Source of the DNA: Minisyncoccota bacterium
GTDB taxonomy: Bacteria; Patescibacteriota; Minisyncoccia; Phycocordibacterales; JAQTLZ01
Length of the DNA stretch: 64,000 nt
Reading direction: 5' to 3'
Assembly (NCBI GenBank): GCA_028714635.1
Contig: JAQTLZ010000001.1
Coordinates: forward strand, 173,272 to 237,271
In this document: one piece after another, positions 4,490-41,147 of the stretch
How positions within the stretch are numbered: the stretch's first letter is position 1
Layout of the letters: every line of letters begins with the position of its first letter
Made by a program: the position numbers and the translations under genes
Notes under the pieces: model-generated
The model's database searches: none
What the model saw: the letters and a program-made list of their open reading frames with translations, nothing else
Told to the model about the DNA's origin: nothing

Positions 4490-4549
4490 AATGCTTTGAG
4501 AGAGGAAATCCTCCTTGTTTTTCAATTGCCTTTTGTGTTCTAATAGTTC

Positions 4550-5554
4550 ATGGGTAATTTTCTCAAGCACCACTTTATTCCCCATGAAGGGAATGAATAC
4601 AAGCCACACTTTTTAAGAGAAGCTTCGATTGCTTCGCTCATCTCTCTTGCTCTCATTCTTTTTCTCGGTTCAATTTCGTATGGAATTGTAGCGACCAAAA
4701 CAAATATTTTGGCGTCTATTTACCCGTCTCTGGTTGTTAATCTTACAAATGAAAACCGAACTGCACAGGGCGATCTTCCTCTCCAAGTAAATCCGCTTTT
4801 AGAAAAATCGGCGGGATTCAAGGCAGAAGATATGGCGGAGAAAGGATATTTTGCCCACACCTCTCCGGAAGGGCTCACTCCATGGCATTGGTTTGATCTT
4901 GCTGGCTACGCGTATATCTATGCCGGAGAAAATCTTGCTGTGAATTTTTCTGACACGGATACAGTAGTGAATGCGTGGATGAATTCTCCGACGCACCGGG
5001 AAAATATTCTCAATAATCATTTTACGGAGATTGGCATCGCCACTTCTCACGGAGTATATAAAGGAAGAGATACGATTTTCGTCGTCCAAGATTTTGGAAC
5101 TCCATCTCTCGCATCTGCAGAGGGGAATGTCCGGCCGGTTTTGAAAGAGGTGAAAAGCATTGCTCCTATTTCACAGGTACAAGTCTCTCCTGAAGTAGCC
5201 GGTGAGAGTGTGAAAAAAGATTTTGTGCAGGCAGAAGCGCCGCTTCAGACTTTTGTTGCTGTGAAAAATGAGGCCGCTGTATCTTCCGCACCCGCACAAC
5301 AAGCTATAGATGGAAATTCTTTTCCGAAACTTTCGTGGTATCAAAGAGCGGTGCTTTTGTATCCCAAAATAGTGAGCGATGCATATATTGTCCTTGCCGG
5401 CATCGTTGTTCTTTCACTTGTCCTTCTTATCTTCATTGAAGTTAAAAAACAGCACCCAAAACATATTCTGTACGGATTTCTTGTTTTAGCATTAGTGCTT
5501 GTGCTACTCTACCTCTCTCGGGCAATTCTCTTCCCGCAGGTGATCATAATCTAA
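4550..5554 (+). CDS. CAP/SCP/PR-1-like domain protein with C-terminal TM anchor
   Basis: GYFAHTSPEG, GENLA, WMNSPTHRENIL, FTEIGIA match CAP-domain signature motifs; N- and C-terminal hydrophobic helices. Confidence 0.55.
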   Translation: MGNFLKHHFIPHEGNEYKPHFLREASIASLISLALILFLGSISYGIVATKTNILASIYPSLVVNLTNENRTAQGDLPLQVNPLLEKSAGFKAEDMAEKGYFAHTSPEGLTPWHWFDLAGYAYIYAGENLAVNFSDTDTVVNAWMNSPTHRENILNNHFTEIGIATSHGVYKGRDTIFVVQDFGTPSLASAEGNVRPVLKEVKSIAPISQVQVSPEVAGESVKKDFVQAEAPLQTFVAVKNEAAVSSAPAQQAIDGNSFPKLSWYQRAVLLYPKIVSDAYIVLAGIVVLSLVLLIFIEVKKQHPKHILYGFLVLALVLVLLYLSRAILFPQVIII

Positions 5555-5560
5555 ACACAA

Positions 5561-6775
5561 ATGGCAGAACAGAGAATCAAAAAAGAGCTCGGAGAGTGGA
5601 AGGATATTTCCATCGTGAATCTTATCGATTCGCTTGTTGAGTATGCTCATGCAAACCACGCATCGGATATTCACATTGATCCATCGGAGAAAAAAGTGCG
5701 AGTGCGGCTTCGTATTGACGGCGTTTTGGAAGAGCTTTGTGTATTTCCGAAAGACATTCATCCAGAAATTATTTCCCGAATCAAAATTCTGGCATCTTTG
5801 CGCACTGACGAGCATCAATCGCCCCAAGACGGACGTTTCCGGATTTCGCTTAAGTCGAAGTTCCCGATAGATGTGCGAGTTTCTATTGTTCCAACATTTT
5901 TCGGCGAGAATGCGGTGCTCCGGCTTCTGTCAGACAAAGCGGAAAGCATTTCTTTGGACATGCTTGGTTTAAACGAGAGAGATTACCAAAAACTTAAGAA
6001 AGCTGTGCAGAAATCTTCGGGAATGATCCTTGCTACCGGTCCGACCGGTTCTGGAAAGACCACGACGCTGTATACGATTTTGAAGATGCTCAATACCAAA
6101 GAAGTATCGATTATTACCATTGAAGATCCGATCGAATACGCGCTTGAGGGGATTGAACAGATCCAAGTAGACCCGCGAAGTTCGCTCACTTTTGCAAATG
6201 GTTTGCGCTCTATTTTGCGCCAAGATCCGAACATTATCATGGTAGGTGAGATCCGTGATACAGAAACTGCCGGCATTGCAGTCAACACCGCTCTCACAGG
6301 GCACTTGCTTCTCTCTACGCTCCATACAAATGATGCGGCGACAACGCTTCCGCGACTTCTTGATATGCACATTGAACCATTTTTGGTCGCTTCGACTGTC
6401 TCTGTCGCTATCGGCCAGCGGCTGGTGCGCACGCTCTGTCCGCATTGCAAGGTGCCGAAAACGCTTACAGAAGCGGAAAAGAAAACGCTCGAAGACATTT
6501 TTGCCGGAGTTCCGCTTCCGGAAAATCCCACGTTTTTTGAAGCGAAAGGCTGCGACGAATGCAGCACTGCAGGCTTTCGCGGACGAATCGGCCTTTACGA
6601 GGTCCTTGTCATGTCCCCAGCTATTCGAGAGGCAATATTGCGGAAGACTTCAGCCGCTGAAATAAAAACCATAGCTTTGCAAGAAGGCATGACTCCCATG
6701 GTTCGTGATGGTCTTGAAAAAGCCGCTCGCGGTCTCACTACCATTGAGGAAGTAATGCGTGTCGGCCATGAATAA
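5561..6775 (+). CDS. pilB: type IV pilus assembly ATPase PilB/GspE family
   Basis: Walker A GPTGSGKTTTLY, Asp box, His box (LLSTLHTNDA), tetracysteine CPHC...CDEC zinc motif; 404 aa. Confidence 0.85.
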   Translation: MAEQRIKKELGEWKDISIVNLIDSLVEYAHANHASDIHIDPSEKKVRVRLRIDGVLEELCVFPKDIHPEIISRIKILASLRTDEHQSPQDGRFRISLKSKFPIDVRVSIVPTFFGENAVLRLLSDKAESISLDMLGLNERDYQKLKKAVQKSSGMILATGPTGSGKTTTLYTILKMLNTKEVSIITIEDPIEYALEGIEQIQVDPRSSLTFANGLRSILRQDPNIIMVGEIRDTETAGIAVNTALTGHLLLSTLHTNDAATTLPRLLDMHIEPFLVASTVSVAIGQRLVRTLCPHCKVPKTLTEAEKKTLEDIFAGVPLPENPTFFEAKGCDECSTAGFRGRIGLYEVLVMSPAIREAILRKTSAAEIKTIALQEGMTPMVRDGLEKAARGLTTIEEVMRVGHE

Positions 6776-6944
6776 TCCCCGCCACACTTCAAAAGAACGC
6801 ACTTCCCATCGGCCGTCTCTCCATTCTGAAATGGCGAAAAAAGTTCTTCCCAAAGTCGAAAAGAAAAAACATTTCGGGCACGCAATTGTTCCCAAACTTT
6901 CTCATTCGAGCAAAAAAATAAGAGCAAAAATGGGAGGCTTCCGG

Positions 6945-8033
6945 ATGAAAGTCCAAGCATATTGGAAAACAGATCAAAAAAATAGGTTGCGGCTCAGCAT
7001 GAAAGAGCGTTCCCATTTTGCCAAACGCCTTTCTTTTCTTATCTCCGGCGGAGTGCCGCTTCTCGAGGCTCTTTTTGTGCTTCAAAAGCAAAATCGCTCC
7101 CGGAGGAAAGAGAAATTTTTCGATTCTATTATCGCTGATATTTCAAATGGCCAGACGCTTTCGAAGGCACTCGTGAAATTTCCGAGAATGTTCGATGATT
7201 TTGCAGTGAATATTATTCGAGTCGGTGAATCAAGCGGGACCTTAAACCAAAATCTCCAGTATCTTGCCGAAGAGCTGAAAAAGAAAAATGTCCTTCGAAA
7301 TAAAGTATTGAGCGCGCTTGTCTATCCGATTTTTATCACCATAACGACATTGGCCCTCACCATTTTGCTCACCATTTTTATTTTTCCTAAAATTCAGCCG
7401 ATCTTCACTAGTCTTCGGGTTGCGATTCCTTTGACCACGAGAATACTTATTTTTACAAGCGCATTTCTTCGCGCCTATGGGCTCTGGCTTTTGGCAGCGC
7501 TCGTCGTTTCCGCTATAGTATTTTTGATTTTCCTCAAGAAATCAGAAGGTTTCCGAAAATTTTTCGACAGGAATATATTTCGCATTCCGCTTTTAGGGAC
7601 GATTTTTCAGGGATATAACCTTGCTAACATTACCCGCACTTTGGGGCTTCTTTTGAAAAGCGGGGTCAAATTGAGCGAGGCGGTCATTGTGACCGCGGAT
7701 ACCACAGCTAACGTCATCTACAAACAAGAGCTCCATAATATTTCCGCAGGAGTGCTGAGAGGCGAGAAACTTTCTTTCTACATGGAGAAGAATAGAAAAC
7801 TTTTCCCTGATCTTGTCTCTCATATGGTCGCGGTCGGGGAGGGGACGGGAAACCTTTCCAACACGCTCATCTATCTTTCTGAAAGCGAAGAGGCGGAAGT
7901 GGACGATCTGACCAAAAATCTTTCCAATTCCATCGAGCCCTTGCTTATGGTCTTTATGGGCCTTATTGTTGGATTTATAGCTGTTTCGGTCATAACGCCT
8001 ATCTATGAAATTACCCAAAATCTTCATCCATAA
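6945..8033 (+). CDS. pilC: type IV pilus platform protein PilC/GspF family
   Basis: Two GspF-type repeats, 3 TM segments, ORF 6759..8033; likely start at MKVQAYW (6945) preceded by GGGAGG at 6932-6937; the long ORF overlaps the pilB end. Confidence 0.75.
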   Translation: MKVQAYWKTDQKNRLRLSMKERSHFAKRLSFLISGGVPLLEALFVLQKQNRSRRKEKFFDSIIADISNGQTLSKALVKFPRMFDDFAVNIIRVGESSGTLNQNLQYLAEELKKKNVLRNKVLSALVYPIFITITTLALTILLTIFIFPKIQPIFTSLRVAIPLTTRILIFTSAFLRAYGLWLLAALVVSAIVFLIFLKKSEGFRKFFDRNIFRIPLLGTIFQGYNLANITRTLGLLLKSGVKLSEAVIVTADTTANVIYKQELHNISAGVLRGEKLSFYMEKNRKLFPDLVSHMVAVGEGTGNLSNTLIYLSESEEAEVDDLTKNLSNSIEPLLMVFMGLIVGFIAVSVITPIYEITQNLHP

Positions 8034-8508
8034 AGAGAAGACATGCGGTTTCACTTTAATAGAAATTTTGGTCGTGATGGCGATTTTCACGCTTCTCTCT
8101 GGCCTCGGGTTGTTTATGACATTTGATTCCTATCGCGGAGCTTCTTCGCGTTCCGAGCGCGATACTGTGGTGAGTCTTTTGGAAAGGGCGCGCAGTCAGG
8201 CAATGAATAATGTTTGTTTTGGCGCTTCTTGCGTCGGAGGAAAAAGACACGGTATCTCCATTCAGTCCAACCAATACGTGATTTTTGAGGGAGGAAACTA
8301 TGCCAGTCGTGACAGTGAGGTCGATCAAATTACCCCCGCTAATCCGACAGCCATCATAACTCCTATTGATGTGGTATTTGATCAGCTGACCGGAAAACTT
8401 TACCCGCAACTTTCTCCCGCGACAACCGAATTGATCATCACCATAAAGCAGGCCGACCGGCCCGATTCAATTATTTCAATCAACAATGAAGGCACGATCA
8501 ATTGGTGA
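8005..8508 (+). CDS. pseudopilin (prepilin-type N-terminal cleavage/methylation domain)
   Basis: Class III signal KTCG|FTLIEILVVMAIFTLL; 167 aa; overlaps the pilC end. Confidence 0.6.
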   Translation: MKLPKIFIHKEKTCGFTLIEILVVMAIFTLLSGLGLFMTFDSYRGASSRSERDTVVSLLERARSQAMNNVCFGASCVGGKRHGISIQSNQYVIFEGGNYASRDSEVDQITPANPTAIITPIDVVFDQLTGKLYPQLSPATTELIITIKQADRPDSIISINNEGTINW

Positions 8509-8574
8509 TTTTTGCACCACAAAAATCATGTCAGAAGATTTTTAGCCGAAGGCGTAAAAATTTCTGACTCAAAC

Positions 8575-10188
8575 ATGAAAACTGAAAATACAAAACCAAA
8601 GATAAAAAACTCTCGAGGCTTCAGCACGCTTGAAATACTCATTGCTTTTTCTATTCTCATTTTGGCTTTGACGGCGCTTATTCTCGTGGTCTTCGGCAAT
8701 CAATCGATCTTAATTGATACTCAGGTAAGCAATGAAGCGCTCCATAAAGCGGAAGCCTTGCTTGAGGGTGCGCGTGCCGATTCTCGCTTCGATTTTGGCC
8801 TCGTCAATCCGACCACAACAATAGAAGTGAGCGGTTCGCTCGCTTATACAAAAAAACTTGAAGTGCACCAGGTGGATTTATTTACCAAGGAAGTAAAGAG
8901 TATCGTAAGCTGGCTTGGTCCGAATGACCGCAATCTCTCCGTAACGCTCAGTACGCTTCTTACCAACCCTCAGGCGGTAGCCGGAGGAGATACATGCAGT
9001 TCTGTTCTTGAGGGTAATTGGAATGATGCGCAAATAACCGAGCCGATTGATGTGGGTACGACCTCCAGCGGAAATCCCGTGACCAGCGTGTACGCTTTCA
9101 ATGAAAAACTCTATCTTACGACAGCAAATACTCATGGGCATAATGATGATTTTTATATATACGATCTTTCCGCTGATCCCAAACACCCCACCCAGATAAT
9201 AAGCAGAGATACGAATGGTTTGACTCCTGGATTAAATGCGGTGACAGTTTCGAAAAATGGCGCAAACCAGTTTGCGTATGTAGGGAATGCAAATGATAGA
9301 AATTTTAAAACCTGTACGTCTGGACCGGGTTGTTCGCAACTGCAAGTGATAGATGTTACGAGTCCAAGTTCTCCTTCGGTCGTAGCTAGTTTCTTGCTTC
9401 CAACGAGCACGGCACCGTATGTCCTGGGAAATGTCACAAGTTCCAACGATCAAGCTGTCGGGAAAAGTATTTTTTATAAAGATGGATATGTTTATCTTGG
9501 ATTGACGACCACTTCAAATGGGCCAGGTTTTCATATTATTGATGTGCATGATCCATTGCATCCAAGCTGGGTTGGCAGTTGGCCATCCCCAGCACTGGGA
9601 TTTGGAAGTTCGGGCGCCCCCATTAACGCAATCTATGTTAAGAATAATTATGCATACCTCGCTCATCCTACAGGCCTCGCCGGCGGGTCTTCGGAACAAT
9701 TGACAGTTCTTGATATCAGCAATCTATCCAGTCCCCAGCGCGTCAGTTCTTTTTTTGATAGCGGCGGTGTCGGGGGAAACGGGAAAAGCCTTGGTTTGGT
9801 TGGCAACAAATTATATTTTGGAAGGACAGCGACAAAAATTTCCGGAGCAACGGATTCTCGTCCAGAGTTTTACATTTTGAACAATGCTAATCCCACCTCT
9901 CTCCCAGCTGCTCCGCTCGGCACTCTTGCCTTGGCCACTGCCGAAAGCGCAAACGGAATACTTATCCGCGATTATCTCGCTTTTTTGACCACCACTAATT
10001 ATTTTCAAATCTGGAATATTTCGAACCCCTCAAATATTTTAGCGGTCAAATCATTCTTTATGCCCGACATTGTGCATAGCGGGTCAACCGGTTCGGCATC
10101 AGGATGCGAGGGAAATTATATTTATGTTGGTTCGTATAGGACGAGTAACGATAAGGGGGTAATCCTTGTCGCATATCCAGGACTATGA
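8575..10188 (+). CDS. large pseudopilin with beta-propeller-like (LVIVD-type) repeats; possible pilus tip/adhesin subunit
   Basis: Prepilin N-terminus NSRG|FSTLEILIAFSIL; at least 7 degenerate repeats (YLTT, YVGN, YLGL, YLAH, YFGR, YVGS); ORF opens at 8512, Met at 8575 more plausible. Confidence 0.5.
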   Translation: MKTENTKPKIKNSRGFSTLEILIAFSILILALTALILVVFGNQSILIDTQVSNEALHKAEALLEGARADSRFDFGLVNPTTTIEVSGSLAYTKKLEVHQVDLFTKEVKSIVSWLGPNDRNLSVTLSTLLTNPQAVAGGDTCSSVLEGNWNDAQITEPIDVGTTSSGNPVTSVYAFNEKLYLTTANTHGHNDDFYIYDLSADPKHPTQIISRDTNGLTPGLNAVTVSKNGANQFAYVGNANDRNFKTCTSGPGCSQLQVIDVTSPSSPSVVASFLLPTSTAPYVLGNVTSSNDQAVGKSIFYKDGYVYLGLTTTSNGPGFHIIDVHDPLHPSWVGSWPSPALGFGSSGAPINAIYVKNNYAYLAHPTGLAGGSSEQLTVLDISNLSSPQRVSSFFDSGGVGGNGKSLGLVGNKLYFGRTATKISGATDSRPEFYILNNANPTSLPAAPLGTLALATAESANGILIRDYLAFLTTTNYFQIWNISNPSNILAVKSFFMPDIVHSGSTGSASGCEGNYIYVGSYRTSNDKGVILVAYPGL

Positions 10189-10643
10189 AAACAACAGGCG
10201 GTTTCACTTTAATCGAATCGGTTGTCTACGTCGCTCTTTTAGCCCTCATCATGGGAGGAGTCTTGCCTCTGGTGTATCAAATTTTGCAGGGAAGCAATAC
10301 TCTATCTGGAATAAATGCGGTACAAGAAGAGGCGAATTTTGTATTGCACAAAATCGATTGGGCGCTTGGCGGTATTTCAAATATCCTCTCTTCTTTTTCT
10401 GATGCCGACACCATTACCATACCCAGATACGATGGGAATCAGGTGCGTTTTCGGTTGAACACGGACAAAATCGAGATGAGCGAATCGGGCGGGACATATC
10501 TGCCGATCACTACAGCCAATGTGGCGGCAACTCATTTGCTTTTTCATTACATACCGGCGATGGGCACGGGACCAGCGGGTGTGAAAGTTTCTTTTACTCT
10601 CGGAACTGTTCCATTTGAAATAACGAAATACATACGAAAATGA
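10185..10643 (+). CDS. pseudopilin
   Basis: N-terminus MKTTGG|FTLIESVVYVALLALIMGG; 152 aa; 4-bp overlap with the upstream gene. Confidence 0.55.
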   Translation: MKTTGGFTLIESVVYVALLALIMGGVLPLVYQILQGSNTLSGINAVQEEANFVLHKIDWALGGISNILSSFSDADTITIPRYDGNQVRFRLNTDKIEMSESGGTYLPITTANVAATHLLFHYIPAMGTGPAGVKVSFTLGTVPFEITKYIRK

Positions 10644-11014
10644 TTTTAAAACAAAAACAAGGATTCATCGCTCTTATATCCACCATCGTCATCTCGGTGG
10701 TCTTGCTTCTTGTTGTGAGCACGGCGAGCTTAACCGGGTTTTATGGGCGCTCTGATATTTTGGATTCGGAACTCAAGGAGCGGACAAATGCTCTCGCCGA
10801 AGCTTGCGTGGACAAAGCAATTTTGTATGTAGCAGATGGTTCGGCTCATACTTACCCGGAGCTTGTGTCTGTCAGCACTGACAAGTGTTATATAGATTCT
10901 ATAAGTGCCGGGGTCATTAAAACTCACGCGCTTTACAGCAGTTTCCGAACCAATTTGCAAGTCACTATAAATACTGCGAATTTCTCAGTTTTTTCTTGGG
11001 AAGAAGTGCCTTAG
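10640..11014 (+). CDS. pseudopilin-like small protein
   Basis: N-terminus KQKQG|FIALISTIVISVVLLL; 124 aa; translationally coupled to the upstream gene. Confidence 0.4.
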   Translation: MILKQKQGFIALISTIVISVVLLLVVSTASLTGFYGRSDILDSELKERTNALAEACVDKAILYVADGSAHTYPELVSVSTDKCYIDSISAGVIKTHALYSSFRTNLQVTINTANFSVFSWEEVP

Positions 11015-11105
11015 AATTAAGGATTAACTAAAATTGCTTGCTTTTTTGTCTGCCGGTGCTATATATAAGCAACAGAAGATTGTATTACTAATTTAGATAA
11101 AAAAT

Positions 11106-11552
11106 ATGTTTAAGAAATTATCTGCAAGAAAGGGGGGATTCACTCTTATTGAGATTCTCGTCGTCATCGGTATTATCGCTATTTTGGCAACTATTGTGCT
11201 TATTGCCATTAACCCAGCTCGCCAGTTTGCACAAGCAAATAACACACAGAGAGTAAGTAATGTAAATGCAATTTTGAATGCTATCGGACAGTACAGTGCT
11301 GACAATAAAGGCCAGTTGCCTCCGAACATTGATAATACTGTTAGAGAGATTAAAAAAAGCGGAGGAGCTGATATTTGTTCGAGTCTTGTTCCTACTTATA
11401 TACCAGCACTACCATTTGATCCAAAGACCGGCTCTTATACAGACTGCAGTACTTATGACACTAATTACACTGTTGCAACGACAACTGGTAATCGTGTTGT
11501 TGTATCGGCTCCAGACGCTGAGCTTAGTCAAACTATTTCAGTTACTCGCTAA
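11106..11552 (+). CDS. major type IV pilin (PilA-like)
   Basis: SARKGG|FTLIEILVVIGIIAILATIVLIAI class III signal and conserved pilin alpha-1 helix; 148 aa; followed by a strong terminator. Confidence 0.7.
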   Translation: MFKKLSARKGGFTLIEILVVIGIIAILATIVLIAINPARQFAQANNTQRVSNVNAILNAIGQYSADNKGQLPPNIDNTVREIKKSGGADICSSLVPTYIPALPFDPKTGSYTDCSTYDTNYTVATTTGNRVVVSAPDAELSQTISVTR

Positions 11553-11573
11553 TTTTTTCCCGGGTTTTTAAAA

Positions 11574-11613
11574 ATCCCCGCGAGAACCTTTGGGTTCTCG
11601 CGGGGATTTTTAT
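11574..11613 (+). terminator. rho-independent terminator after the pilin gene
   Basis: ccccgcgagaacc/ggttctcgcgggg 13-bp stem followed by atttttatt. Confidence 0.8.
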
Positions 11614-11848
11614 TCAGTAAGAAATGCTTATTCCCATCGTCTACCACTAAAGAGGTCGAATAATGAAAGGTTTTTATTTTATCCACATTTAATTCACAGG
11701 TTATATACAGGACGGGTTACACAATACATAATTCGTAAATCAAGAGTGCAATCAAAAAATAGACCAGGTAGAATTAGGAAATAATGACGAGGTCGAAAAT
11801 TGTACATTTAAAAATTAAATAATTATTACAAGAATTAATACAAACATT

Positions 11849-14278
11849 ATGAAACAGATAACAATAGAAAAAAGATCGTTTTGGAGCAAAATACTTTCTG
11901 CTTCAGTTTTGAGCTTCATGCTCGCGGTCGCTTTTGCCGGAACTCCTGCAAGAGCAGACGTTGACCCGGCAGGTTGTACCGATAACGGCGGAGGAGTCTC
12001 TGTCGCAGCATTTCGTGCTGATGGAACGACAAATATCGGATCAGGAACAGTGACCGACGGTGAAGCTATTAAGTATAAAGCGACACTTTCCGCACTCCCT
12101 ACTCCGAACTGTGCTTTTGAAGGCGGAACGTGGACACTTACTACTCCAGATGGTGTTTCTCATAATTTGGGCGCTGTGCCTCGAATTGGAGGTACGGGAG
12201 TTGCGAGTCTTTCATCGGCTCTCATTCCTTACACAGTGAATCATGCAGATGAACAGGTGAATTCCACACGACATATTGATGCGATCACAAGCTACAGCGG
12301 AGGAAAATCTCATGCTGACACTCTTGATGAGACAGCGGGCCCAACTCTTGGCGCGTCAAAGATTCTGAAAGTTGTTCACACCCCTACAGTTACTACGAAC
12401 GTACATGACGCAAACCATGCTGTCATCACTTCAGCTCCGATCGGATCTTCTGTACACGACCAAGCAACGGTTACTGGCGAAACTGGCGGTCCTGTTCCTA
12501 CAGGCACTGTTAATTTTAATCTCTACCCAAACACAACTTGTGAGGCGACTCCGACAACGCAATCAGGAGTTGCTTTGACGGCGGGAGTAGGAGAATCCAG
12601 CGCAACAACCGTTCCGACAACAGGTCTCTCTTACAAAGCTCACTACAATGGTGACGGTAATTACCTTGTAGCGGATGGTGCATGTGAGCCATTAACGGCG
12701 ACAAAACTTGATTCCCGCACTTCTACAGATGTTCACAGTGCTAATCACTCAGTTATTACTTCCGCAACAGTTGGGGATATGGTGCATGATAATGCTCTTG
12801 TAACTGGTACGGGTGGAACTGCAACTGGCAATGTTTCCTTCCAGCTTTACAGCGATGGCGTATGTACTGCAACAAATGGTGCTCCTCAAGTAGTAGCACT
12901 TGATGGCACAGGACATGCAGAGACAACTCCTGTTGCTGCAGCTGCTCCAGCGATGTCTTACAAAGCTAGCTATGCAGGAAACGATACTTACAATGCGAGC
13001 GAGGGAGCATGTGAACCTCTAACTGTAAACAAGCTCACTCCATCAGTAGTCACGGAAGTTCACAATGCTTCTGAAGCGGTTGTCAGTGGTTCAGTGATAG
13101 CTCCGGTAACAGTGCATGATAAGGCTACTGTTTCAGGTTCAGGTGGAACTCCAACCGGAACTGTAGATTTCTCATTCTACACATCAACCACTTGTTCTAG
13201 TGAGGCAACACCTTCTGGTTCAGGCGTTTCTCTGGTTTCCGGAGTTGCACACCCTTCATCGAGCCAAGGACCACTTTCTGCAGGTAGCTACGGATTCAAA
13301 GCTCACTACAATGGTGATGCGACCTACTCAGCAGCAGATGGCGAATGTGAACCATTCACAGTAGTTTCTCAAGGTCATATTATTGTAGATAAAGTAACCA
13401 ATCCTTCTGGCGATTCACAAAGCTTTGATTTCACTGCAGGAGGTGCAGGATACACAAACTTTTCTCTCACTGACGCTACGGCACCAAATGACCAGACTCT
13501 AAACGCTGGTACCTATTCTGTTTCTGAAACTCTTCCATCGGGATGGGTTCAGACAAGCGCAACGTGTGACGGTCAAGGAAATACCCCAGCAAGTATCACG
13601 CTTGCTGCAGGTCAGACAGTAACATGTACCTTCACCAACACAAAGAAAGGCCATCTTATCGTTGATAAGGTAACCGACCCAACCGGCGATACGACTTCCT
13701 TCCCAATTAATGCAACAGGAAGCGGAACGATCACTGGTGGTGGAGCAGGTACAATAACTGATGCGGCAAATAAAGACTACGAAGTTACCCCGGGCACCTA
13801 TTCAGTAACGGAAAACACCCCATCAGGATGGAACATGACTGGAAATACCTGTACGGATGTTGCAGTAGGTCCAGGGGAGACAAAGACTTGTACGATCACG
13901 AACACGAAAGCTCCAGTCTTGCAATATTGTTCTCCAGGATATTGGAAGAATCATCCAGCAAGTTGGACAGGATACACTCCAAGCCAGCTCTTCAGTAGTG
14001 TCTTCGAACAGATCTCAATTATGTGGAGCGCAAAAGGCAAGCCTTCTCCAGTGGCAAATCCTACGCTTCAGCAAGCACTTGAGGCGAACGGCGGTGGAAT
14101 CAATCAGCTCGCCCGAGCAACAGTTAACGCTCTCTTGAACACCTCTGCTGGACTCACGACAGGGTTCACTACTCAAGAGATCATCGATGCATTCAACGCA
14201 GCAGTTCCGGGCACAGACAGCGCATACAGCTCTCTTGCTGCTCGATTCACTGCTCCAGAGAACTGTCCGCTCCACTAA
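11849..14278 (+). CDS. large secreted surface protein/adhesin with tandem Ig-like repeats and two Cna-B/prealbumin-like domains
   Basis: Signal peptide; about four ~100-aa repeats each with (V/A)HD(N/K)ATV(T/S)G...GT(P/A)TG(T/N)V(S/D)F...CEP(L/F)TV; then two HLIVDKVT...TCT(F/I)TNTK domains; cysteine-containing C-terminal domain. Confidence 0.5.
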   Translation: MKQITIEKRSFWSKILSASVLSFMLAVAFAGTPARADVDPAGCTDNGGGVSVAAFRADGTTNIGSGTVTDGEAIKYKATLSALPTPNCAFEGGTWTLTTPDGVSHNLGAVPRIGGTGVASLSSALIPYTVNHADEQVNSTRHIDAITSYSGGKSHADTLDETAGPTLGASKILKVVHTPTVTTNVHDANHAVITSAPIGSSVHDQATVTGETGGPVPTGTVNFNLYPNTTCEATPTTQSGVALTAGVGESSATTVPTTGLSYKAHYNGDGNYLVADGACEPLTATKLDSRTSTDVHSANHSVITSATVGDMVHDNALVTGTGGTATGNVSFQLYSDGVCTATNGAPQVVALDGTGHAETTPVAAAAPAMSYKASYAGNDTYNASEGACEPLTVNKLTPSVVTEVHNASEAVVSGSVIAPVTVHDKATVSGSGGTPTGTVDFSFYTSTTCSSEATPSGSGVSLVSGVAHPSSSQGPLSAGSYGFKAHYNGDATYSAADGECEPFTVVSQGHIIVDKVTNPSGDSQSFDFTAGGAGYTNFSLTDATAPNDQTLNAGTYSVSETLPSGWVQTSATCDGQGNTPASITLAAGQTVTCTFTNTKKGHLIVDKVTDPTGDTTSFPINATGSGTITGGGAGTITDAANKDYEVTPGTYSVTENTPSGWNMTGNTCTDVAVGPGETKTCTITNTKAPVLQYCSPGYWKNHPASWTGYTPSQLFSSVFEQISIMWSAKGKPSPVANPTLQQALEANGGGINQLARATVNALLNTSAGLTTGFTTQEIIDAFNAAVPGTDSAYSSLAARFTAPENCPLH

Positions 14279-14346: not shown

Positions 14347-14408
14347 GCGCATCAGTTTGAATGAAAGTTTGTCCCCAGCCTCGCATTCTTTTGCGGGGTT
14401 TCTTCTTG

Positions 14409-14497: not shown

Positions 14498-15025
14498 ATG
14501 GCCTTTACAGACCCAGAACACAACATACAGCAATTTGGACTTCAGTCTGGAGCGAAAGTCGCAGATTTCGGCGCCGGCAGCGGTTTTTATGCTTTTGAAA
14601 TTGCAAAAGCTGTCGGCGGGGCGGGGAAAGTCTATGCGATTGATGTCCAAAAAGATCTTTTGGCAAAAATTAAAAATGAAGGAAGCAAACGCGGATTTAC
14701 AAATATCGAAATCATCTGGGCGGATGTGGAAAAACCGGCAGGCACGCATTTGAAAGCGGATTCAGTTGATGCGGTGCTCATTTCAAACATTCTTTTCCAG
14801 CTTCCTGATAAAGTCGGCGCCGTCGCAGAAGCAAAGCGGATTGTGAAATCAGGCGGACGCATTCTGGTGATTGATTGGACCGATTCGTACGGGGGAATGG
14901 GGCCGGCATTTGATGCGATTTTTACGGCAAAAAAGGCGCAAGAACTTTTCACGAAAGCGGGGCTCACACTGCAAACCCAAATCCGGGCAGGGGATCATCA
15001 TTACGGACTCATTTTTAAAAAATAG
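14498..15025 (+). CDS. class I SAM-dependent methyltransferase
   Basis: Motif I VADFGAGSGFYA; acidic loop YAIDVQ; 175 aa. Confidence 0.65.
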   Translation: MAFTDPEHNIQQFGLQSGAKVADFGAGSGFYAFEIAKAVGGAGKVYAIDVQKDLLAKIKNEGSKRGFTNIEIIWADVEKPAGTHLKADSVDAVLISNILFQLPDKVGAVAEAKRIVKSGGRILVIDWTDSYGGMGPAFDAIFTAKKAQELFTKAGLTLQTQIRAGDHHYGLIFKK

Positions 15026-15027
15026 CT

Positions 15028-16308
15028 ATGTCCAATTTTCAAATTGTTTTTATCGGAATTCTCATCTTTTTTGCTATCGTCGGCCTCATTACTTTTGCAA
15101 TTGTGAGGGCGCCGGAAGGAAGCGCGACCGCATCTGTGGTGATCTGGGGTACGGTTCCCCAACAAACATTTGACGCTCTTTTCACCGCGCTCAATCAAGG
15201 GAAGCAATCGGAGCTTAAAGTAAGTTATGTTGAAAAAGATGAAGCCACATTCGATACTGATTTAGCAGAAGCTATCGCCACAGGCCACGGTCCCGACATA
15301 TTTCTTTTAGGACAAGATAAAATCTACCGCCACTCTGAAAAGATTGCTCTTATTCCTTTTACCGCTCTTACGCAAAGACAATTTCAAGATACTTTCATAC
15401 AAGAGGGGAATATGTATCTCACAGGCAATGGAATTCTCGCTTTGCCTTTCGTGATCGACCCGCTTGTTATGTATTGGAATCGCGATCTTCTCACGAATGC
15501 TTCCGTAGTTGCTCCGCCGAAAAATTGGAGTGATTTCATCGCATTTACTAAAAAGCTCACGCTTAAAAATAATGCATCCGTACTGCTTCAAAGTGCGGGA
15601 GCGATGGGGGAGTTTAAAAATGTCTCCAATGCAAAAGAAATTCTAGCGACACTTCTTCTGCAGTCGGGCAATCCCATTACAAAATATGACCAGATCGGCT
15701 GGGTTTCTGCTCTTGATTCATCGGGAAACTCCGCCGAAGAGGGGCTTCGTTTTTATGCCCAGTTCGGGAATCCGACCAACGAGGCCTACACCTGGAACCG
15801 CTCTCTTCCTCTTTCTATTGATTCATTCGCTTCTGGCAAGCTCGCTGTTTATTTTGGTTTTGCGTCGGAACTCAAGACACTTCGACAGAAAAATCCGAAT
15901 CTCAATCTCGATATGGCACTTATGCCTCAGCCGAAAGAAGTCACAGTTTCAATGACTTTTGGCAGAATGTACGGCCTCGCAATTCTCAAAACTTCGCCGA
16001 ACTTCGTGAGTGCTCTCAATATGATTACGTATCTCACGTCGCAAGATGTGGTAAGAAATTTTGCTGTAGTCAGCGGCTTGCCTCCAACCCGTCTCGATCT
16101 TTTGGCAGTACCCCCGCAAGATTCATTGAGTCCAGTAATGTATTCTTCCGCGCTTCGTTCCCGCGCGTGGTTTGACCCAAATCCGACAGAGACGAAAAAC
16201 ATTTTCCAGCGGATGATCGAAACAGTATCTTCCGGCCAGGAAAAATATTCTGACGCGATAGGGTTGGGAAGCCAGGCGATTCAGCTTTTGTTTAACCAAA
16301 ATAACTAA
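15028..16308 (+). CDS. membrane-anchored extracellular solute-binding-like protein (ABC SBP family 1-like)
   Basis: N-terminal TM; about 400-aa periplasmic-binding-fold-like region (VVIWGT, DIFLLGQD); weak assignment. Confidence 0.35.
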   Translation: MSNFQIVFIGILIFFAIVGLITFAIVRAPEGSATASVVIWGTVPQQTFDALFTALNQGKQSELKVSYVEKDEATFDTDLAEAIATGHGPDIFLLGQDKIYRHSEKIALIPFTALTQRQFQDTFIQEGNMYLTGNGILALPFVIDPLVMYWNRDLLTNASVVAPPKNWSDFIAFTKKLTLKNNASVLLQSAGAMGEFKNVSNAKEILATLLLQSGNPITKYDQIGWVSALDSSGNSAEEGLRFYAQFGNPTNEAYTWNRSLPLSIDSFASGKLAVYFGFASELKTLRQKNPNLNLDMALMPQPKEVTVSMTFGRMYGLAILKTSPNFVSALNMITYLTSQDVVRNFAVVSGLPPTRLDLLAVPPQDSLSPVMYSSALRSRAWFDPNPTETKNIFQRMIETVSSGQEKYSDAIGLGSQAIQLLFNQNN

Positions 16309-16311
16309 AAT

Positions 16312-16770
16312 ATGGCAGACTTATCTTCCTCAAAAAATATACTTTCGAAAATCTTTCTCGGGTTTTTTGTTTTCTTCGTTATTTTCAGTGTTGCTTTGCC
16401 CGTTTTTGCCTGGAGTCCTTTCCAGCCAGTTGTTCCTCCTTGTGATGGTTCGATTACAGCAGAAAATTCTGATCTCAATGACACCCGCACGGGGCAAAGT
16501 GGTTGTGGATATAACGCCTTCCTCCAGCTTGTTTCCAACATCATTCAATTTCTTCTTTATATCGCGATTCCAATTGCAGCTGTTTCGTTCTTTTTTGCCG
16601 GTTTCCTTTATTTGACCGCAGGAGGAAATCCTGGGAAAATAGAAGAGGCTCATCATATCTTTTGGAGTGCGCTTGTCGGAATTATTATTATGCTTGCTGC
16701 GTGGCTCATCATAAATACCATACTTACTGCGCTCGTCGAGAAAGGTTCAGGTTTTAATTTGCTCGGTTAA
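16312..16770 (+). CDS. VirB2/TrbC-like small 'pilin' (two-TM hairpin domain)
   Basis: C-terminal IAIPIAAVSFFFAGFLYLTAGGNPGKIEEAHHIFWSALVGIIIMLAAWLI is a TM-loop-TM unit shared with the four following genes. Confidence 0.45.
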   Translation: MADLSSSKNILSKIFLGFFVFFVIFSVALPVFAWSPFQPVVPPCDGSITAENSDLNDTRTGQSGCGYNAFLQLVSNIIQFLLYIAIPIAAVSFFFAGFLYLTAGGNPGKIEEAHHIFWSALVGIIIMLAAWLIINTILTALVEKGSGFNLLG

Positions 16771-16780
16771 TTTTCGCAAG

Positions 16781-17932
16781 ATGCTTACCATGAAAACAGT
16801 AGAAAAAGTGGAACATATACTTAAAAATAAATCAGCTTTTTTCTTCGGAATCTTTTTTGTTCTCATCTCGTTTCTTATTTTAGGAGCGCTTCCTTCGTCC
16901 GCTTCAGCTGCTACCTGGTGTTCAAAAGATCCAAATAATGTAGTGCATGTATTTGGTTCGGGTCCAGCGTGTACCCAAGGAAGAGATGCTTCCTGGAATG
17001 TGTGCGGTACTTGTGTCGTATGGTGTGCCATTGGCAAAGACAAAAAAGCGGTCAATGCTTTTCCCACCAATGATGCCTGTGTCCAGTCTATTGCAAATTC
17101 GGGAGTCTCCGGCGGTTCTTGTAGGCAGTGTACCTCTACAGATATTGCTACCATCAACAATAAGCTCAAAGGCTATTACGGAACATCGAAACCCACAAAC
17201 GGTTCCCTTTTTAATTTCAATTTAAATGGAATTCTTTTGGGATTCGGCTCTGGATCGTACATGTCACTTTATTCCGCGGATAATACAATTAATCAGACTT
17301 GGTGTGCCGCTTCGGGAGGTGGCAATGTTGTATTCTATAGTCTCAGCAGTTGTGTTGCCGCGGCTGGTTCGCCTGAAAAATGTTCTCCTTGCCAAGATCA
17401 GGGTGCGGGGAATACGACTCCGCTTCCTACTCTCAATACGGAGCCGGGAGCTTATTGTGATGCAAACGGCACGAATTATCCTTCTTTGTCTGCGTGTGTA
17501 AATAGTCAGGCGAACCAAGGCATTGATAGCCCTTCTTGTGGTCCTTGTTCCGATCCTGCTTTAGGGGGAGGTCCTCATCAATCTCCAGCACCCTTTGATT
17601 TGGGTGACACGGGCAAGAAGCCGTTTGATCTCGGTACTACTGGTGGCAGTTGTTCCGGTAGCAATGGCAGATTGCCGAATCCTCTTGGAAATACATGTGA
17701 TTTGTACACGCTTCTCAATAAAATTCTAAAAGTTGCCGAACAGATTGGCGGAGTGATCATTGTGCTCGCTATTATTTACACCGGCTTTCTCTTTGTAAAA
17801 GCTCGCGGGAATAGTGAAGAGCTTGAAACAGCAAAGAGGGCATTTATGTGGACAGTGATTGGGGCAGGGGTGCTTCTCGGAGCGACTGTTCTATCAAAAA
17901 TCATTGAGAACACCATTAAACAATTACAATAA
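16781..17932 (+). CDS. Cys-rich secreted domain fused to a C-terminal VirB2/TrbC-like pilin hairpin
   Basis: Signal peptide; about 280-aa region with more than 20 Cys; C-terminus GGVIIVLAIIYTGFLFVKARGNSEELETAKRAFMWTVIGAGVLL is paralogous to the neighbouring pilin units. Confidence 0.45.
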   Translation: MLTMKTVEKVEHILKNKSAFFFGIFFVLISFLILGALPSSASAATWCSKDPNNVVHVFGSGPACTQGRDASWNVCGTCVVWCAIGKDKKAVNAFPTNDACVQSIANSGVSGGSCRQCTSTDIATINNKLKGYYGTSKPTNGSLFNFNLNGILLGFGSGSYMSLYSADNTINQTWCAASGGGNVVFYSLSSCVAAAGSPEKCSPCQDQGAGNTTPLPTLNTEPGAYCDANGTNYPSLSACVNSQANQGIDSPSCGPCSDPALGGGPHQSPAPFDLGDTGKKPFDLGTTGGSCSGSNGRLPNPLGNTCDLYTLLNKILKVAEQIGGVIIVLAIIYTGFLFVKARGNSEELETAKRAFMWTVIGAGVLLGATVLSKIIENTIKQLQ

Positions 17933-17954
17933 TTTAATAATTTATTTATTTACT

Positions 17955-18269
17955 ATGAATCCATCACAAAATCTTGCTGCAGCATGTGCGATAGACTTCA
18001 CCACTTTGGCAGATTGTATGACAAGGTACTTGGGACAGATTATTCCTGTCCTGGTCGGGGTTGCTGTCATCGGTTTTCTCTATGGAGTACTCCGTTATAT
18101 CTATTCAGGAGGGGATGAAGAAAAACGAAAAGAGGGAGTACGTTTTATGACTTATGGTATTGTCGGTTTGGCCGTTATCACCACACTATGGGCTCTTGTC
18201 GGGATTATTACCCTAAGTGTCGTTGGTACAAATCCAGTGTTGCCACAACTTACTCCGGGCCTTCAATAA
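17955..18269 (+). CDS. VirB2/TrbC-like pilin paralog
   Basis: VGVAVIGFLYGVLRYIYSGGDEEKRKEGVRFMTYGIVGLAVITTLWALV; Met at 17955 inside ORF 17859..18269. Confidence 0.45.
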   Translation: MNPSQNLAAACAIDFTTLADCMTRYLGQIIPVLVGVAVIGFLYGVLRYIYSGGDEEKRKEGVRFMTYGIVGLAVITTLWALVGIITLSVVGTNPVLPQLTPGLQ

Positions 18270-18393
18270 AGCCGTATTTCATATCCACACGTCTTTCTTG
18301 CTGATTTCCCTCGGTTTGTTACCATTAAAGTACGTTTCATTAAAAAAGTCGTTCAACGAAACTTTATTATTAAGTTATTTATTAATAGATAGT

Positions 18394-18735
18394 ATGAAAA
18401 AATCTCTCATCATTGCTTCAGTTTGGGCGCTTCCTGGCTTAGCGTTCGCAGCGGGTTTTGATAATATCATCGGTCTTGCTCAAAGGACTTTGAGCCAGCT
18501 CGTTCCTCTTTTTATTTCTGCAGCAGTCGTACTTTTTCTCTACGGTGTTCTTACTTATATTCTTGCGGGAGGAGATGAAGAAAAGCGATCAGCGGGGCGA
18601 AACACGATGATCTACGGTATTATCGCAATTTTCGTGATGGTATCCGTCTGGGGTTTGGTGAATCTTCTTCGAGATTCGCTCCAGTTGAATCAGGCAAACA
18701 ACGTTCCGAATCTTCTTCCTGCAACTCATAATTAA
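18394..18735 (+). CDS. VirB2/TrbC-like pilin paralog with signal peptide
   Basis: MKKSLIIASVWALPGLAFA signal; FISAAVVLFLYGVLTYILAGGDEEKRSAGRNTMIYGIIAIFVMVSVWGLV; Met at 18394 in ORF 18217..18735. Confidence 0.45.
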   Translation: MKKSLIIASVWALPGLAFAAGFDNIIGLAQRTLSQLVPLFISAAVVLFLYGVLTYILAGGDEEKRSAGRNTMIYGIIAIFVMVSVWGLVNLLRDSLQLNQANNVPNLLPATHN

Positions 18736-18741
18736 AAAGTA

Positions 18742-18770
18742 AAAGAGCTCATCCACGAGCTCTTTTCTTC
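18742..18770 (+). terminator. rho-independent terminator
   Basis: aaagagctc/gagctcttt stem followed by tcttc. Confidence 0.55.
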
Positions 18771-18783
18771 GTCCTCTTTTCCT

Positions 18784-19014
18784 ATGGAATTACTTGGTAA
18801 ATTAGAAACAGCCGTTTTAAATCCCGTTATCATAATCCTCTTTGGAGTTGCGGTAGTTATTTTTGTGTATGGGGTTGTTCAATTTATCTGGAAATCCGAT
18901 GATGAAGAAGCGCGTCAAGTTGGAGCCCAACATATTATGTGGGGACTTATCGGGCTTTTTATTATGACCGCTGCGATTGCTATAAAATCTTTTATCAAAA
19001 GCACAATACAGTAA
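18784..19014 (+). CDS. VirB2/TrbC-like pilin paralog (minimal 76 aa)
   Basis: ILFGVAVVIFVYGVVQFIWKSDDEEARQVGAQHIMWGLIGLFIMTAAIAI; same two-TM architecture. Confidence 0.4.
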   Translation: MELLGKLETAVLNPVIIILFGVAVVIFVYGVVQFIWKSDDEEARQVGAQHIMWGLIGLFIMTAAIAIKSFIKSTIQ

Positions 19015-19058
19015 GCATAAATTCTTTTCTAAGTCATCTGATTTATTTAGGCAAAAAT

Positions 19059-19100
19059 AATAGGCGGGGAGTGGCTAATGCCCCTCCTCGCCTATTTTCC
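19059..19100. terminator. bidirectional terminator between convergent genes
   Basis: Imperfect GC-rich hairpin taggcggggag...ctcctcgccta flanked by A/T runs on both strands. Confidence 0.45.
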
Positions 19101-19101
19101 A

Positions 19102-19686
19102 TCACCTAATATTTGTACATTGTTTACTGGGTTCTATTTTTACATTTACCTGACTTGGATTCAGGTTTTCTATGAGTACCCATTTTGGTTCATAGTCTCT
19201 TGGCGTGCTGGCGCCGATCCGTTTGTCCGCAGTCCGCTCATCCGGAGCCGCCTCGCTTTCCCTGTAGAAAGTTCGGCTGAATTTCTGCGGATTGAAGTCG
19301 TTCGGCGGAGAGGGGATTTCGTAGTGCACTCCTCCGTCAGGCAGGCAAACCAATTTGCTTTTGCCCGGAGGGACTTCCACGATACACGGTAGCTTTACAG
19401 GCACCCGTGGTTGGATCACCTTCGCTGTGACCACCCGAACTACAGTTTTCGTGGGCCGGGTGGATGGAGCTGGCGCTTTTGCTGTTTTCTGCGGCGCTAG
19501 CGCTTTTTCGATTTTCTTCAACTCCAGCGCCTGTTGCGCTGTTGCCTCGGGGGTGGTGGTGCCATATCCGTGTTCGAGGATATACATCACTACGCTCGAG
19601 ATGGGAATGATGAGAAGACCGAGCGCGATCAGTTTCATTATGATCTCGCCCGGTTTCAGATTGATTCCACCGCTGCTTGCACTCAT
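19102..19686 (-). CDS. hypothetical membrane protein
   Basis: 194 aa, one TM helix, Ala/Pro/Lys-rich linker; chosen over the overlapping plus ORF because it is co-directional with the two following genes. Confidence 0.35.
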   Translation of the reverse strand: MSASSGGINLKPGEIIMKLIALGLLIIPISSVVMYILEHGYGTTTPEATAQQALELKKIEKALAPQKTAKAPAPSTRPTKTVVRVVTAKVIQPRVPVKLPCIVEVPPGKSKLVCLPDGGVHYEIPSPPNDFNPQKFSRTFYRESEAAPDERTADKRIGASTPRDYEPKWVLIENLNPSQVNVKIEPSKQCTNIR

Positions 19687-19709
19687 GCCGATCTCCTTTC
19701 AGGTTTCAG

Positions 19710-39964: not shown

Positions 39965-40639
39965 TTATGGCTTCTTAGGTCCTTTACCAACCAATCTCGC
40001 AAATGATTTTGCGATTGGTTCACCTTTATGAAAGACAAAAGTTCCTTCAACACCAAGTTCTTCTCTAATATCCCAGTAAAATCTTTCTATGCGGTTCGCT
40101 ATCTTCTTTGTAAAACGTGGGTCCACTTGAAAAATACCGTTAATATGGACGAAGCCATTCTCGTGGATATTTAGTTTTGTATTGAAGTGACCAACCTGAT
40201 TTCCTCTGGCACGGACTATCTGGTTTATTGATGCTTTTATACTATCCAGTCTTTTCTGGTAACGCTTACGCTTCTTTTCATCTTTGATGTGGTCAGTCAT
40301 CGTATAGAGCGATGATGTCTGCCTGTTTTCATCGAGAATTGTACCGAGAATGACAATCGCATCTCGTGAATAGACATCAACCATCGAAATAATAATGGTT
40401 AGACTTCGCTTCGGCTCATCTTCAGCAAAGTCATCTTTGTGTTTGCCAAGATACAGAATGAGGTCGGCTTGGTCTCGTAGACGATTGAGACAATCATAAA
40501 CATAATCACTTATGTTTCGTATCTTTCTTGTTTCGTCTATTACTGGTTTCTTTTTTGATTTCATATAGGTGAGGGTTTTGCTTCTTGTCTGCCCTGAGAA
40601 GTATTTGGAACGCTCCAACAATCCTATCTCTTTCTTCAT
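39965..40639 (-). CDS. hypothetical protein (last gene of the R-M/helicase operon)
   Basis: 224-aa ORF, basic, no recognised motif. Confidence 0.35.
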   Translation of the reverse strand: MKKEIGLLERSKYFSGQTRSKTLTYMKSKKKPVIDETRKIRNISDYVYDCLNRLRDQADLILYLGKHKDDFAEDEPKRSLTIIISMVDVYSRDAIVILGTILDENRQTSSLYTMTDHIKDEKKRKRYQKRLDSIKASINQIVRARGNQVGHFNTKLNIHENGFVHINGIFQVDPRFTKKIANRIERFYWDIREELGVEGTFVFHKGEPIAKSFARLVGKGPKKP

Positions 40640-40659
40640 TGGTCCAGTTCGGGACTTTA

Positions 40660-41142
40660 TTATTTTTTACTACCATTGATTTCCTTTATCATTTTCCAGC
40701 TCAATTCTTCGACCGTACCTAATTCATCCACAAAAAAGAGATACAGGTTCAATTTATCCATCACATCAAACGGCATCTTTCGTATGACCATTTTTCTGAA
40801 TGATGTAGGAAAAGCAACTCCGTATTTGTAGCCATACTTGTAACCTCTTGCTCCATTACGGTGCATTCTTGTCAGTATCTGTCCCAGTGCAGAGTTGAAG
40901 CTACTACTCTGGCTCCCTGAAGGGTTTATAACCTTTATTGAGGGGTCTCCTTTGGCTTCTATAAGCCAGTATCGTGCAAAGTTATTGTTTCGGACTTTTA
41001 TATCAACACCTTGCTCCCACAACTCCTTACTAGTTAGTGATTTGCTCCAGCCGTTTAGCTCAAGATGTCTAATGACAGACTTTTGTACAAAATCCTCTGT
41101 GATTATCTGTCTTTCTTTTTTGGTTGGTTTAGGGGTAATCAT
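40660..41142 (-). CDS. small PD-(D/E)xK-like nuclease-fold protein
   Basis: GVDIKV...WLIEAKG fits D...(E)xK restriction-endonuclease-like core; 160 aa from Met at 41142 (ORF opens at 41163 with GTG). Confidence 0.4.
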   Translation of the reverse strand: MITPKPTKKERQIITEDFVQKSVIRHLELNGWSKSLTSKELWEQGVDIKVRNNNFARYWLIEAKGDPSIKVINPSGSQSSSFNSALGQILTRMHRNGARGYKYGYKYGVAFPTSFRKMVIRKMPFDVMDKLNLYLFFVDELGTVEELSWKMIKEINGSKK

Positions 41143-41147
41143 AGAAT

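Follow-up and report, generated by a model that had tools for sequence, protein, structure and literature searches.

The 64-kb stretch of DNA analysed here (the window; 64,000 nucleotides of contig JAQTLZ010000001.1 in the Minisyncoccota assembly GCA_028714635.1) carries at positions 16312-19014 five forward-strand open reading frames (ORFs) in tandem, here called pilin 1 to pilin 5 (p1-p5), whose products match a pilin family of type IV secretion systems (T4SS). The original prediction, made from the letters of the window, had described five tandem genes for pilin-like hairpins at this place, and the array is borne out, since all five products score above the gathering threshold of the Pfam family PF18895 (T4SS_pilin), with 30.7-42.1 bits against 26.6. 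Furthermore, a hidden Markov model (HMM) built from the five hairpins matched exactly these five among the 802 six-frame ORFs of the window, the next best match having E=0.12, so that the resemblance between the hairpins is not due to chance. Genes called independently on identical contigs in public data, where PF18895 is precomputed for these genes, have the same start positions; the samples SRR22315508 and SRR22315509 also contain the locus, and a database protein 100% identical to p2 (GCA_028711105.1) is named by NCBI "pilin [Candidatus Paceibacterota bacterium]". As judged from sequence, the feature is real and already annotated, and its membership in PF18895 is firm; the same family was matched by 100 of 100 sampled relatives, and most family members are 95-135 amino acids (aa) long.

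Architecture of the five pilins

The C-terminal end of each of the five proteins consists of two strongly hydrophobic segments with a short charged loop between them, as seen in hydropathy profiles. AlphaFold2 places the two helices of p4 at residues 22-57 and 62-95 (mean pLDDT 77) and those of p2 at residues 305-338 and 342-379, the p2 model being derived from a seven-sequence alignment with a mean pLDDT of 49 and its Cys-rich domain unresolved. A common helix-loop-helix unit with a GG(D/N) loop had been predicted for all five; the helices and the charged loop are indeed shared, but the GG(D/N) motif is present in p1, p3 and p4 only, p2 having RGN and p5 having SDD at this position. In 100 relatives the loop sequence GGDEEKR is almost invariant. 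By inspection, the N-termini of p1, p2 and p4 resemble signal peptides with sites of the AxA type, and nothing of the kind is seen in p3 and p5. Pairwise identity among the five proteins is low (13-41%, with 41% between p3 and p4). The p3- and p4-type pilins both end in a tail with prolines at intervals (…NPVLPQLTP, …NNVPNLLP; family consensus P..P..P), which might be a processing or contact site.

Conservation and order of the paralogues

Upstream of p1 lie genes for a class I S-adenosylmethionine (SAM)-dependent methyltransferase and for a solute-binding protein (SBP), and the same methyltransferase-SBP-p1 to p5 block was found in all three close relatives that were compared (loci L003, L005 and L006). 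Positional orthologues in these loci are 53-88% identical, compared with the 13-41% between neighbours within the array; identities for each position are given in Table 1. For a wider view, Paceibacteria were scanned with an alignment of the p4 family, using one genome per species, which returned 521 confirmed matches; 79 loci were taken from these, and 81 loci were compared. Every locus compared carries a tandem array on one strand, most commonly of five genes. With HMMs of the five window classes, the order p1-p2-(p3/p4)n-p5, in which n is one to four, recurs across the 81 species-level loci, and the p5 class is the last in the array at most of them. The original prediction had taken the array for an expansion to five paralogs. 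Positional orthology and the recurring class order argue instead that p1-p5 are old, non-redundant and subfunctionalised paralogues. The fixed order of the paralogue classes goes beyond the literature searched.

Table 1. Features of the pilin operon and its borders (window coordinates). The last column gives the identity to the positional orthologues or, where stated, the mean pairwise identity among six p2 orthologues.
Feature	Position	Strand	Description	Identity
Terminator-like hairpin	14377..14400	+	3' of the gene for an 809-aa surface protein; from a consensus scan, such sites being no commoner than in shuffled sequences	
Methyltransferase	14498..15025	+	Class I SAM-dependent methyltransferase, 175 aa; Pfam Methyltransf_31/11/25, Ubie_methyltran; first gene of the conserved block	
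SBP	15028..16308	+	Membrane-anchored MalE-like solute-binding protein, 426 aa; SBP_bac_8 (1.6e-23), SBP_bac_1	
Pilin 1 (p1)	16312..16770	+	152 aa; signal-peptide-like N-terminus, short 2-Cys ectodomain, hairpin; PF18895 32.3 bits	56-60% (hairpin)
Pilin 2 (p2)	16790..17932	+	380 aa from the second ATG (383 aa from 16781); PF18895 42.1 bits	53-71%
p2, signal peptide	16790-16909	+		
p2, 8-Cys head	16910-17164	+	Residues 41-125; conserved, eight invariant Cys	81% (mean, six orthologues)
p2, hypervariable middle	17165-17665	+	Residues 126-292; indel-rich	32% (mean, six orthologues)
p2, pre-hairpin NPLG..C motif and hairpin	17666-17929	+		78% (mean, six orthologues)
Pilin 3 (p3)	17955..18269	+	104 aa, without signal peptide; longest ORF start 17859; PF18895 33.0 bits	64-77%
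Pilin 4 (p4)	18394..18735	+	113 aa; signal peptide ending AFA|A; longest ORF start 18217; PF18895 38.8 bits	83-88% (highest of the five)
Stem-loop	18741..18766	+	AAAAGAGCTC-loop-GAGCTCTTTT with T-rich tail, directly after the p4 stop codon; about -16 to -21 kcal/mol	
Pilin 5 (p5)	18784..19014	+	76 aa, bare hairpin without signal peptide; PF18895 30.7 bits	70-80%
GC-rich hairpin, strong	19059..19096	.	Between the convergent p5 and the - strand gene 19102-19686; RNA fold of 19012-19105, -32 kcal/mol	

Variable ectodomains

One of the five proteins had originally been described as carrying a Cys-rich extracellular domain of 280 aa with more than 20 cysteines. Such a domain is present in p2, but the mature ectodomain measures about 265 aa and the cysteines number 18, which is consistent with an extracytoplasmic location. 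A conserved head is followed by a hypervariable middle and then by the motif that precedes the hairpin (Table 1). The ectodomain matches no Pfam family, and among 1.84 billion representative proteins it was found in four clusters only, all of them fused to the hairpin and belonging to one small clade, so that no functional lead comes from it. In a metagenomic relative of p2 (P0008, 647 aa) the Cys-rich head-plus-stalk module occurs twice in tandem before the same hairpin, from which it follows that the ectodomain grows by modules.

The fusion in p2 is not a one-off graft. The orthologues of p1 are 292, 378 and 304 aa long in L003 (9111-9989), L005 (8848-9984) and L006 (9077-9991), respectively, and their ectodomains add 140-230 residues that are mutually unrelated and partly built of tandem Cys-containing repeats (three tandem "DWYxYD...GPY...C...C" repeats, two Cys repeats of ~55 aa, and a Cys-free domain), with the hairpin itself retained (Table 1). 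Unlike these three close relatives, the window p1 has almost no ectodomain. Of the 81 Paceibacteria loci, 15 have a pilin that an N- or C-terminal extension brings to 200 aa or more. The recurrence of ectodomain-bearing subunits goes beyond the literature searched.

Pilins with a C-terminal extension (242-364 aa, the hairpin being N-terminal) were observed at L026, L032, L040, L065 and L074, at position 3 or 1 of the array, and four of them form a sequence cluster of their own. Since extensions occur at the N-terminus in some relatives and at the C-terminus in others, cargo is evidently possible at either end of the hairpin, and this fits a hairpin that has both ends outside.

The probable operon: methyltransferase and binding protein

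The gaps between the methyltransferase, the SBP and p1 are 2-3 nucleotides (nt) long (3 nt from the SBP to p1), and this spacing, together with the common strand, suggests that 14498-19014 is one seven-gene operon with the pilins distal. Among the 81 loci, all-against-all clustering found the SBP at 70 and the methyltransferase at 66, both upstream of the pilins and on the same strand. In 69 of the 73 loci with enough upstream DNA the SBP lies at most 3 kb upstream of the array, and in 59 of these 69 it abuts the first pilin; the methyltransferase abuts the SBP in 60 of the 71 loci with enough upstream DNA. The closest solved structure to the methyltransferase is 3dh0 (E=1.9e-20), an uncharacterised SAM-dependent methyltransferase. 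Matches of the SBP to solved maltose-binding proteins are weak, and it is only distantly MalE-like. No permease or ATPase partner of the SBP was found, neither as a BPD_transp or ABC_tran match among the scanned ORFs of the window nor among the recurrent neighbours in the 81 loci. In the literature searched no paper linked a binding protein or a methyltransferase with such pilin arrays, and the conserved methyltransferase-SBP-pilin operon goes beyond that literature.

Three hairpins may punctuate the operon (Table 1). The one at 14377..14400 is probably the upstream boundary, and the strong one at 19059..19096 is probably a bidirectional terminator at the operon end. The stem-loop behind p4 keeps its stem and differs in its loop in 4/4 syntenic loci (L003 ~11955-11990, L005 ~11905-11935, L006 ~11928-11957). 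It may act as an attenuator and so determine how much major subunit is made relative to the minor ones, transcriptional attenuation after the major subunit being suggested by its place behind the most conserved paralogue, p4.

The usual neighbourhood of the block in Paceibacteria comprises LepB, Pth, S1, an MBL-fold hydrolase and GyrA upstream, and an SPFH-like protein, RbfA, IF-2 and ClpB downstream. The clade to which the window belongs has a type IV pilus cluster and a surface protein in place of the gyrA side or, in L006, other genes. Since the methyltransferase-SBP-pilin block has stayed intact despite this replacement, it appears to be a unit.

Relation to known pilin systems

A large part of bacterial diversity belongs to the Patescibacteria, which live attached to the cells of their hosts, and the T4SS of these bacteria, with its unusual pilins, is one of a small number of systems proven essential to this lifestyle. 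In Southlakia epibionticum an essential series of predicted pilins, SEML1_0006-0019, lies inside the T4SS cluster (Wang et al., 2023; PMC10633639). In a PF18895 and PF04956 search that covered 3,035 genomes of Patescibacteria, the authors found 441 VirB2 arrays, defined as at least two pilin genes in tandem or one gene apart, in 383 assemblies, with 2-11 pilin genes each and a mean identity of 25%; a pilin gene was near virB4 (within 20 coding sequences) in only 1,135 of 1,948 assemblies (Quinonero-Coronel et al., 2025; PMC12102498). The 3,035 genomes hold 2,474 virB4 genes, and published tables contain arrays in other Candidate Phyla Radiation (CPR) genomes that lie 5-10 genes from TrsD/VirB4.

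That p1-p5 form a PF18895 array of this published kind is close to certain. As in the published cases, genes of this family stand in tandem within the range of 2-11, the identity between paralogues is low (about 25%; 13-41% in the window), and the bearer is a monoderm, host-dependent, ultra-small bacterium in which the array has no relaxase or coupling-protein context. The window array differs, however, in having no T4SS cluster nearby and no virB4 in its proximity, in its partners, the methyltransferase and the binding protein, which appear in neither study, in the large variable ectodomains at two of its positions and in belonging to the class Paceibacteria. The Paceibacteria version of the array is thus a core operon in which the classes keep a fixed order and are linked to a binding protein and a methyltransferase; no secretion ATPase is physically coupled to it, and some of its subunits bear swappable ectodomains.

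The canonical TrbC/VirB2/TraA pilins (PF04956) of F, RP4 and Ti in diderm bacteria resemble p1-p5 in being small, in the leader peptides that some of the five share with them, and in having two helices with a short basic/acidic loop. By contrast, the window array belongs to a monoderm and has five ordered paralogues instead of one pilin gene, some copies in the window or in relatives carry ectodomains of 140-265 aa, and VirB3/4/5/6 are not adjacent. Similarly, the Mbov_0395/MMCAP2_0565 pilin-like protein of Mycoplasma integrative and conjugative elements (NF045849) has two helices and 80 residues and serves a conjugation system of monoderms; p1-p5 align over almost the whole of this model (E 5e-8 to 0.016), all below its cutoff (best p5, with 32.4 against 40). 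The Mycoplasma family consists of one gene within a mobile element, whereas the window has a multi-gene operon in the chromosomal core.

Type IV pili and the pseudopili of type II secretion are built from sets of major and minor pilins, and some of their pilins are modular with grafted domains, such as PilB and PilC of Streptococcus sanguinis. The likeness to the array is one of analogy only, in that an abundant subunit stands beside conserved low-abundance ones in a fixed order and some display an extra domain; fold and machinery are different. The N_methyl motif (PF07963) was not detected in p1-p5 even at E<=1 and is present in the products of 8005-8508 and 10185-10643, and p1-p5 were rejected as type IV pilins for want of this motif. 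Weak holin and ECF-transporter matches (E 1e-2 to 1e-3) were read as noise from transmembrane composition.

Proposed mechanism

The reading that we prefer, with somewhat more confidence than doubt, is that p1-p5 represent, in this genome, a chromosomal operon conserved among Paceibacteria and that they would be pilin subunits assembled by a T4SS. Taken by itself, T4SS-dependent assembly of a filament is evenly balanced; we infer both the pilus and its T4SS dependence by analogy, the steps of topology and assembly being modelled on VirB2/TraA topology and on the Saccharibacteria pilins inside an essential T4SS cluster. In the structures of the F-pilus and the T-pilus, VirB2/TraA pilins have both termini outside and the loop in the cytoplasm. 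Likewise, the hairpins of the array would enter the membrane after removal of a signal peptide (p1, p2 and p4) or directly (p3 and p5), and would come to lie with the charged loop on the cytoplasmic side and the N- and C-termini on the outside. Termini directed outward would put the Cys-rich domain of p2, as well as the extensions of the relatives, in the extracytoplasmic space, where disulfides are possible. A T4SS encoded elsewhere in the genome would then draw the hairpins out of the membrane to build a filament or conduit at the surface. In this filament p4 would be the major subunit, as suggested by its conservation, the highest of the five, and by the conserved stem-loop behind it, and p3 and p5 would be minor or priming subunits. 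The low-abundance subunits would be p1 and p2, whose N-terminal ectodomains would lie outside and contact the host cell, that of p2 consisting of a head rich in disulfides, carried by a variable stalk. The binding protein and the methyltransferase, co-transcribed with the pilins, probably work with them or on them, be it by capturing a ligand, as chaperones or by modification. A role in surface display or host interaction, as the original prediction had proposed, fits the outward termini of VirB2-type pilins and the variability of the ectodomains.

Several observations weigh against T4SS-assembled pilins. The families of VirB4, VirB6, VirB3, VirD4, TrsD, TrbL and relaxases were not found among the scanned ORFs of at least 150 aa in the 64-kb window, in agreement with the original prediction, which had seen no VirB4, VirB6 or VirD4 nearby. 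ORFs of this size outside the scan lie near the window ends (e.g. 391-1011, 1432-2361 and 63322-63819) and are all far too short for VirB4; the array itself is separated from the window ends by more than 16 kb on one side and 45 kb on the other. At 79 other Paceibacteria loci there is no T4SS motor gene within 10 kb of the array, and all ORFs of at least 480 aa at these loci were read, which gave no recurrent VirB4-sized family and only housekeeping genes. Roughly 18-19 kb on the gyrA side of three long contigs likewise contain no T4SS motor gene; the genes there are HisRS-like, YbeY, FtsA, FtsZ and similar ones. Since neither the window nor the loci of the relatives hold a motor gene, genomic linkage of the operon to a T4SS is absent. 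The absence of such linkage for Paceibacteria arrays goes beyond the literature searched, and the published T4SS tables do not include GCA_028711105.1 or its relatives. A recurrent upstream neighbour of 823 aa was considered as VirB4 and rejected, as it is GyrA.

Similarity to the canonical conjugative pilins is also weak. The products had been called VirB2/TrbC-like, with searches against TrbC and T4SS pilin profiles proposed as a check: the T4SS pilin part holds for all five through PF18895, but none exceeds the TrbC/VirB2 threshold. The full-length match of p2 to PF04956 reaches 23.7 bits (E=5.5e-5) against 27.9, p1, p3, p4 and p5 have no match, and only 3 of 100 relatives match at E<=0.01, again below the threshold. 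A profile of the family found nothing below E=0.47 among all PDB sequences and no conjugative pilin, and Foldseek with the p4 model returned nothing from the PDB at E<=0.001, only generic helical hairpins; a two-helix hairpin is too simple for these two outcomes to exclude homology. Homology of p1-p5 to VirB2 is plausible, and the link to the canonical conjugative pilins is weaker than the Pfam name suggests. Furthermore, a recent review treats a pilus of monoderm Patescibacteria as a possibility only, none made of these proteins having yet been seen (2025; PMC12857230). Finally, a domain of 265 aa on every subunit would, on our assumption, be hard to pack in a helical filament of the VirB2 type, and p2 could therefore be only a minor component.

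Alternative explanations

It is unlikely, though in keeping with the missing linkage, that the operon encodes a self-contained envelope complex without any T4SS, in which the ordered two-helix proteins form a hetero-oligomer that works with the anchored binding protein; in one conceivable variant, sugar derived from the host would be captured and passed to a conduit of hairpins, with the methyltransferase modifying a component. The strict linkage of methyltransferase, SBP and pilins across Paceibacteria would be explained in this way, as would a binding protein without permease or ATPase partner in the window, the lack of a T4SS gene within 10-20 kb at any locus examined and the setting of the block among the housekeeping genes gyrA, infB, ftsZ and lepB, and the fixed order and number of the classes suggest an assembly of defined stoichiometry. 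However, the same Pfam family lies inside T4SS clusters in Saccharibacteria and is essential there, arrays of other CPR genomes are close to TrsD/VirB4, and most Patescibacteria encode VirB4 somewhere, as the numbers given above indicate. Moreover, gene order in core regions can last without functional coupling, and the complex would have no precedent; we know of no SBP-dependent transporter with two-helix subunits. We are equally doubtful of the more far-reaching idea that the ordered pilins, a dedicated MalE-like protein and the methyltransferase together form a core filament or conduit, unlinked to a T4SS, which captures host carbohydrate or senses the host and bears exchangeable ectodomains for host recognition. 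If an apparatus unlinked to a T4SS were real, the label "T4SS pilin" would be misleading for Paceibacteria, and the operon would encode a new kind of surface machine.

Two further explanations were considered. The hairpins could be membrane anchors that never polymerise, each of which would merely expose its ectodomain, N- or C-terminal, at the cell surface, much as in the display role of the original prediction, and the large variable ectodomains of p1 and p2, the extended pilins at 15 of the 81 loci, the structurally generic hairpin fold and the fact that no pilus is demonstrated in the literature searched are all compatible with this. Nevertheless, it is improbable, as p3, p4, p5 and most members of the family have almost nothing to display, and the hairpin, comprising the transmembrane segments and the nearly invariant GGDEEKR loop, is the best conserved part (78-88%), which a passive anchor would not need. 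The genes could also be recent, interchangeable duplicates that serve antigenic or host-range variation, a role that VirB2 paralogues are proposed to have in Bartonella and Anaplasma and that was suggested for Patescibacteria (PMC12102498). The low identity between paralogues and the different p1 and p2 ectodomains of close relatives agree with such variation, but it is very improbable, being largely refuted by the positional orthologues, which are much closer to each other than neighbours are, and by the class order kept across 81 species-level loci, which marks the copies as ancient and non-redundant. T4SS-assembled pilins and their alternatives can be approached experimentally through the identity of the major subunit, the ligand of the binding protein and the requirement for VirB4.

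Neighbouring genes

Directly upstream of the operon, where most Paceibacteria have gyrA, the window contains a surface and attachment block (2798-14278). It encodes a protein with SpaA-like and peptidoglycan-binding domains, a CAP-domain protein, an LVIVD-repeat protein and the 809-aa Ig-like/SpaA protein, together with the type IV pilus cluster, which consists of T2SSE (5561-6775), T2SSF (6759-8033) and the two N_methyl pilins (8005-8508 and 10185-10643). On the other side, at 19102-21963 on the - strand and convergent on the pilin operon, lie genes for three membrane or Pro/Ala-rich proteins without a Pfam match. The first of these proteins is ~13-38% identical to its counterpart in close relatives, compared with 93-98% for the flanking IF-2, and other Paceibacteria have SPFH/Band-7-like proteins at this position.

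Farther downstream, the region 39965-54187 encodes a UvrD-like helicase, a ResIII/TnsA-like protein, an N6/N4 DNA methylase, four proteins without a family (47890-52211) and a serine recombinase (52449-54146), the gene end of which overlaps a tRNA-Glu (54115-54187, - strand); the region may be an integrated element. The cumulative GC skew of the window reaches its minimum at a tRNA cluster (22316-22886; window ~22000-24000), where dnaA is not present, and rises steadily from there.

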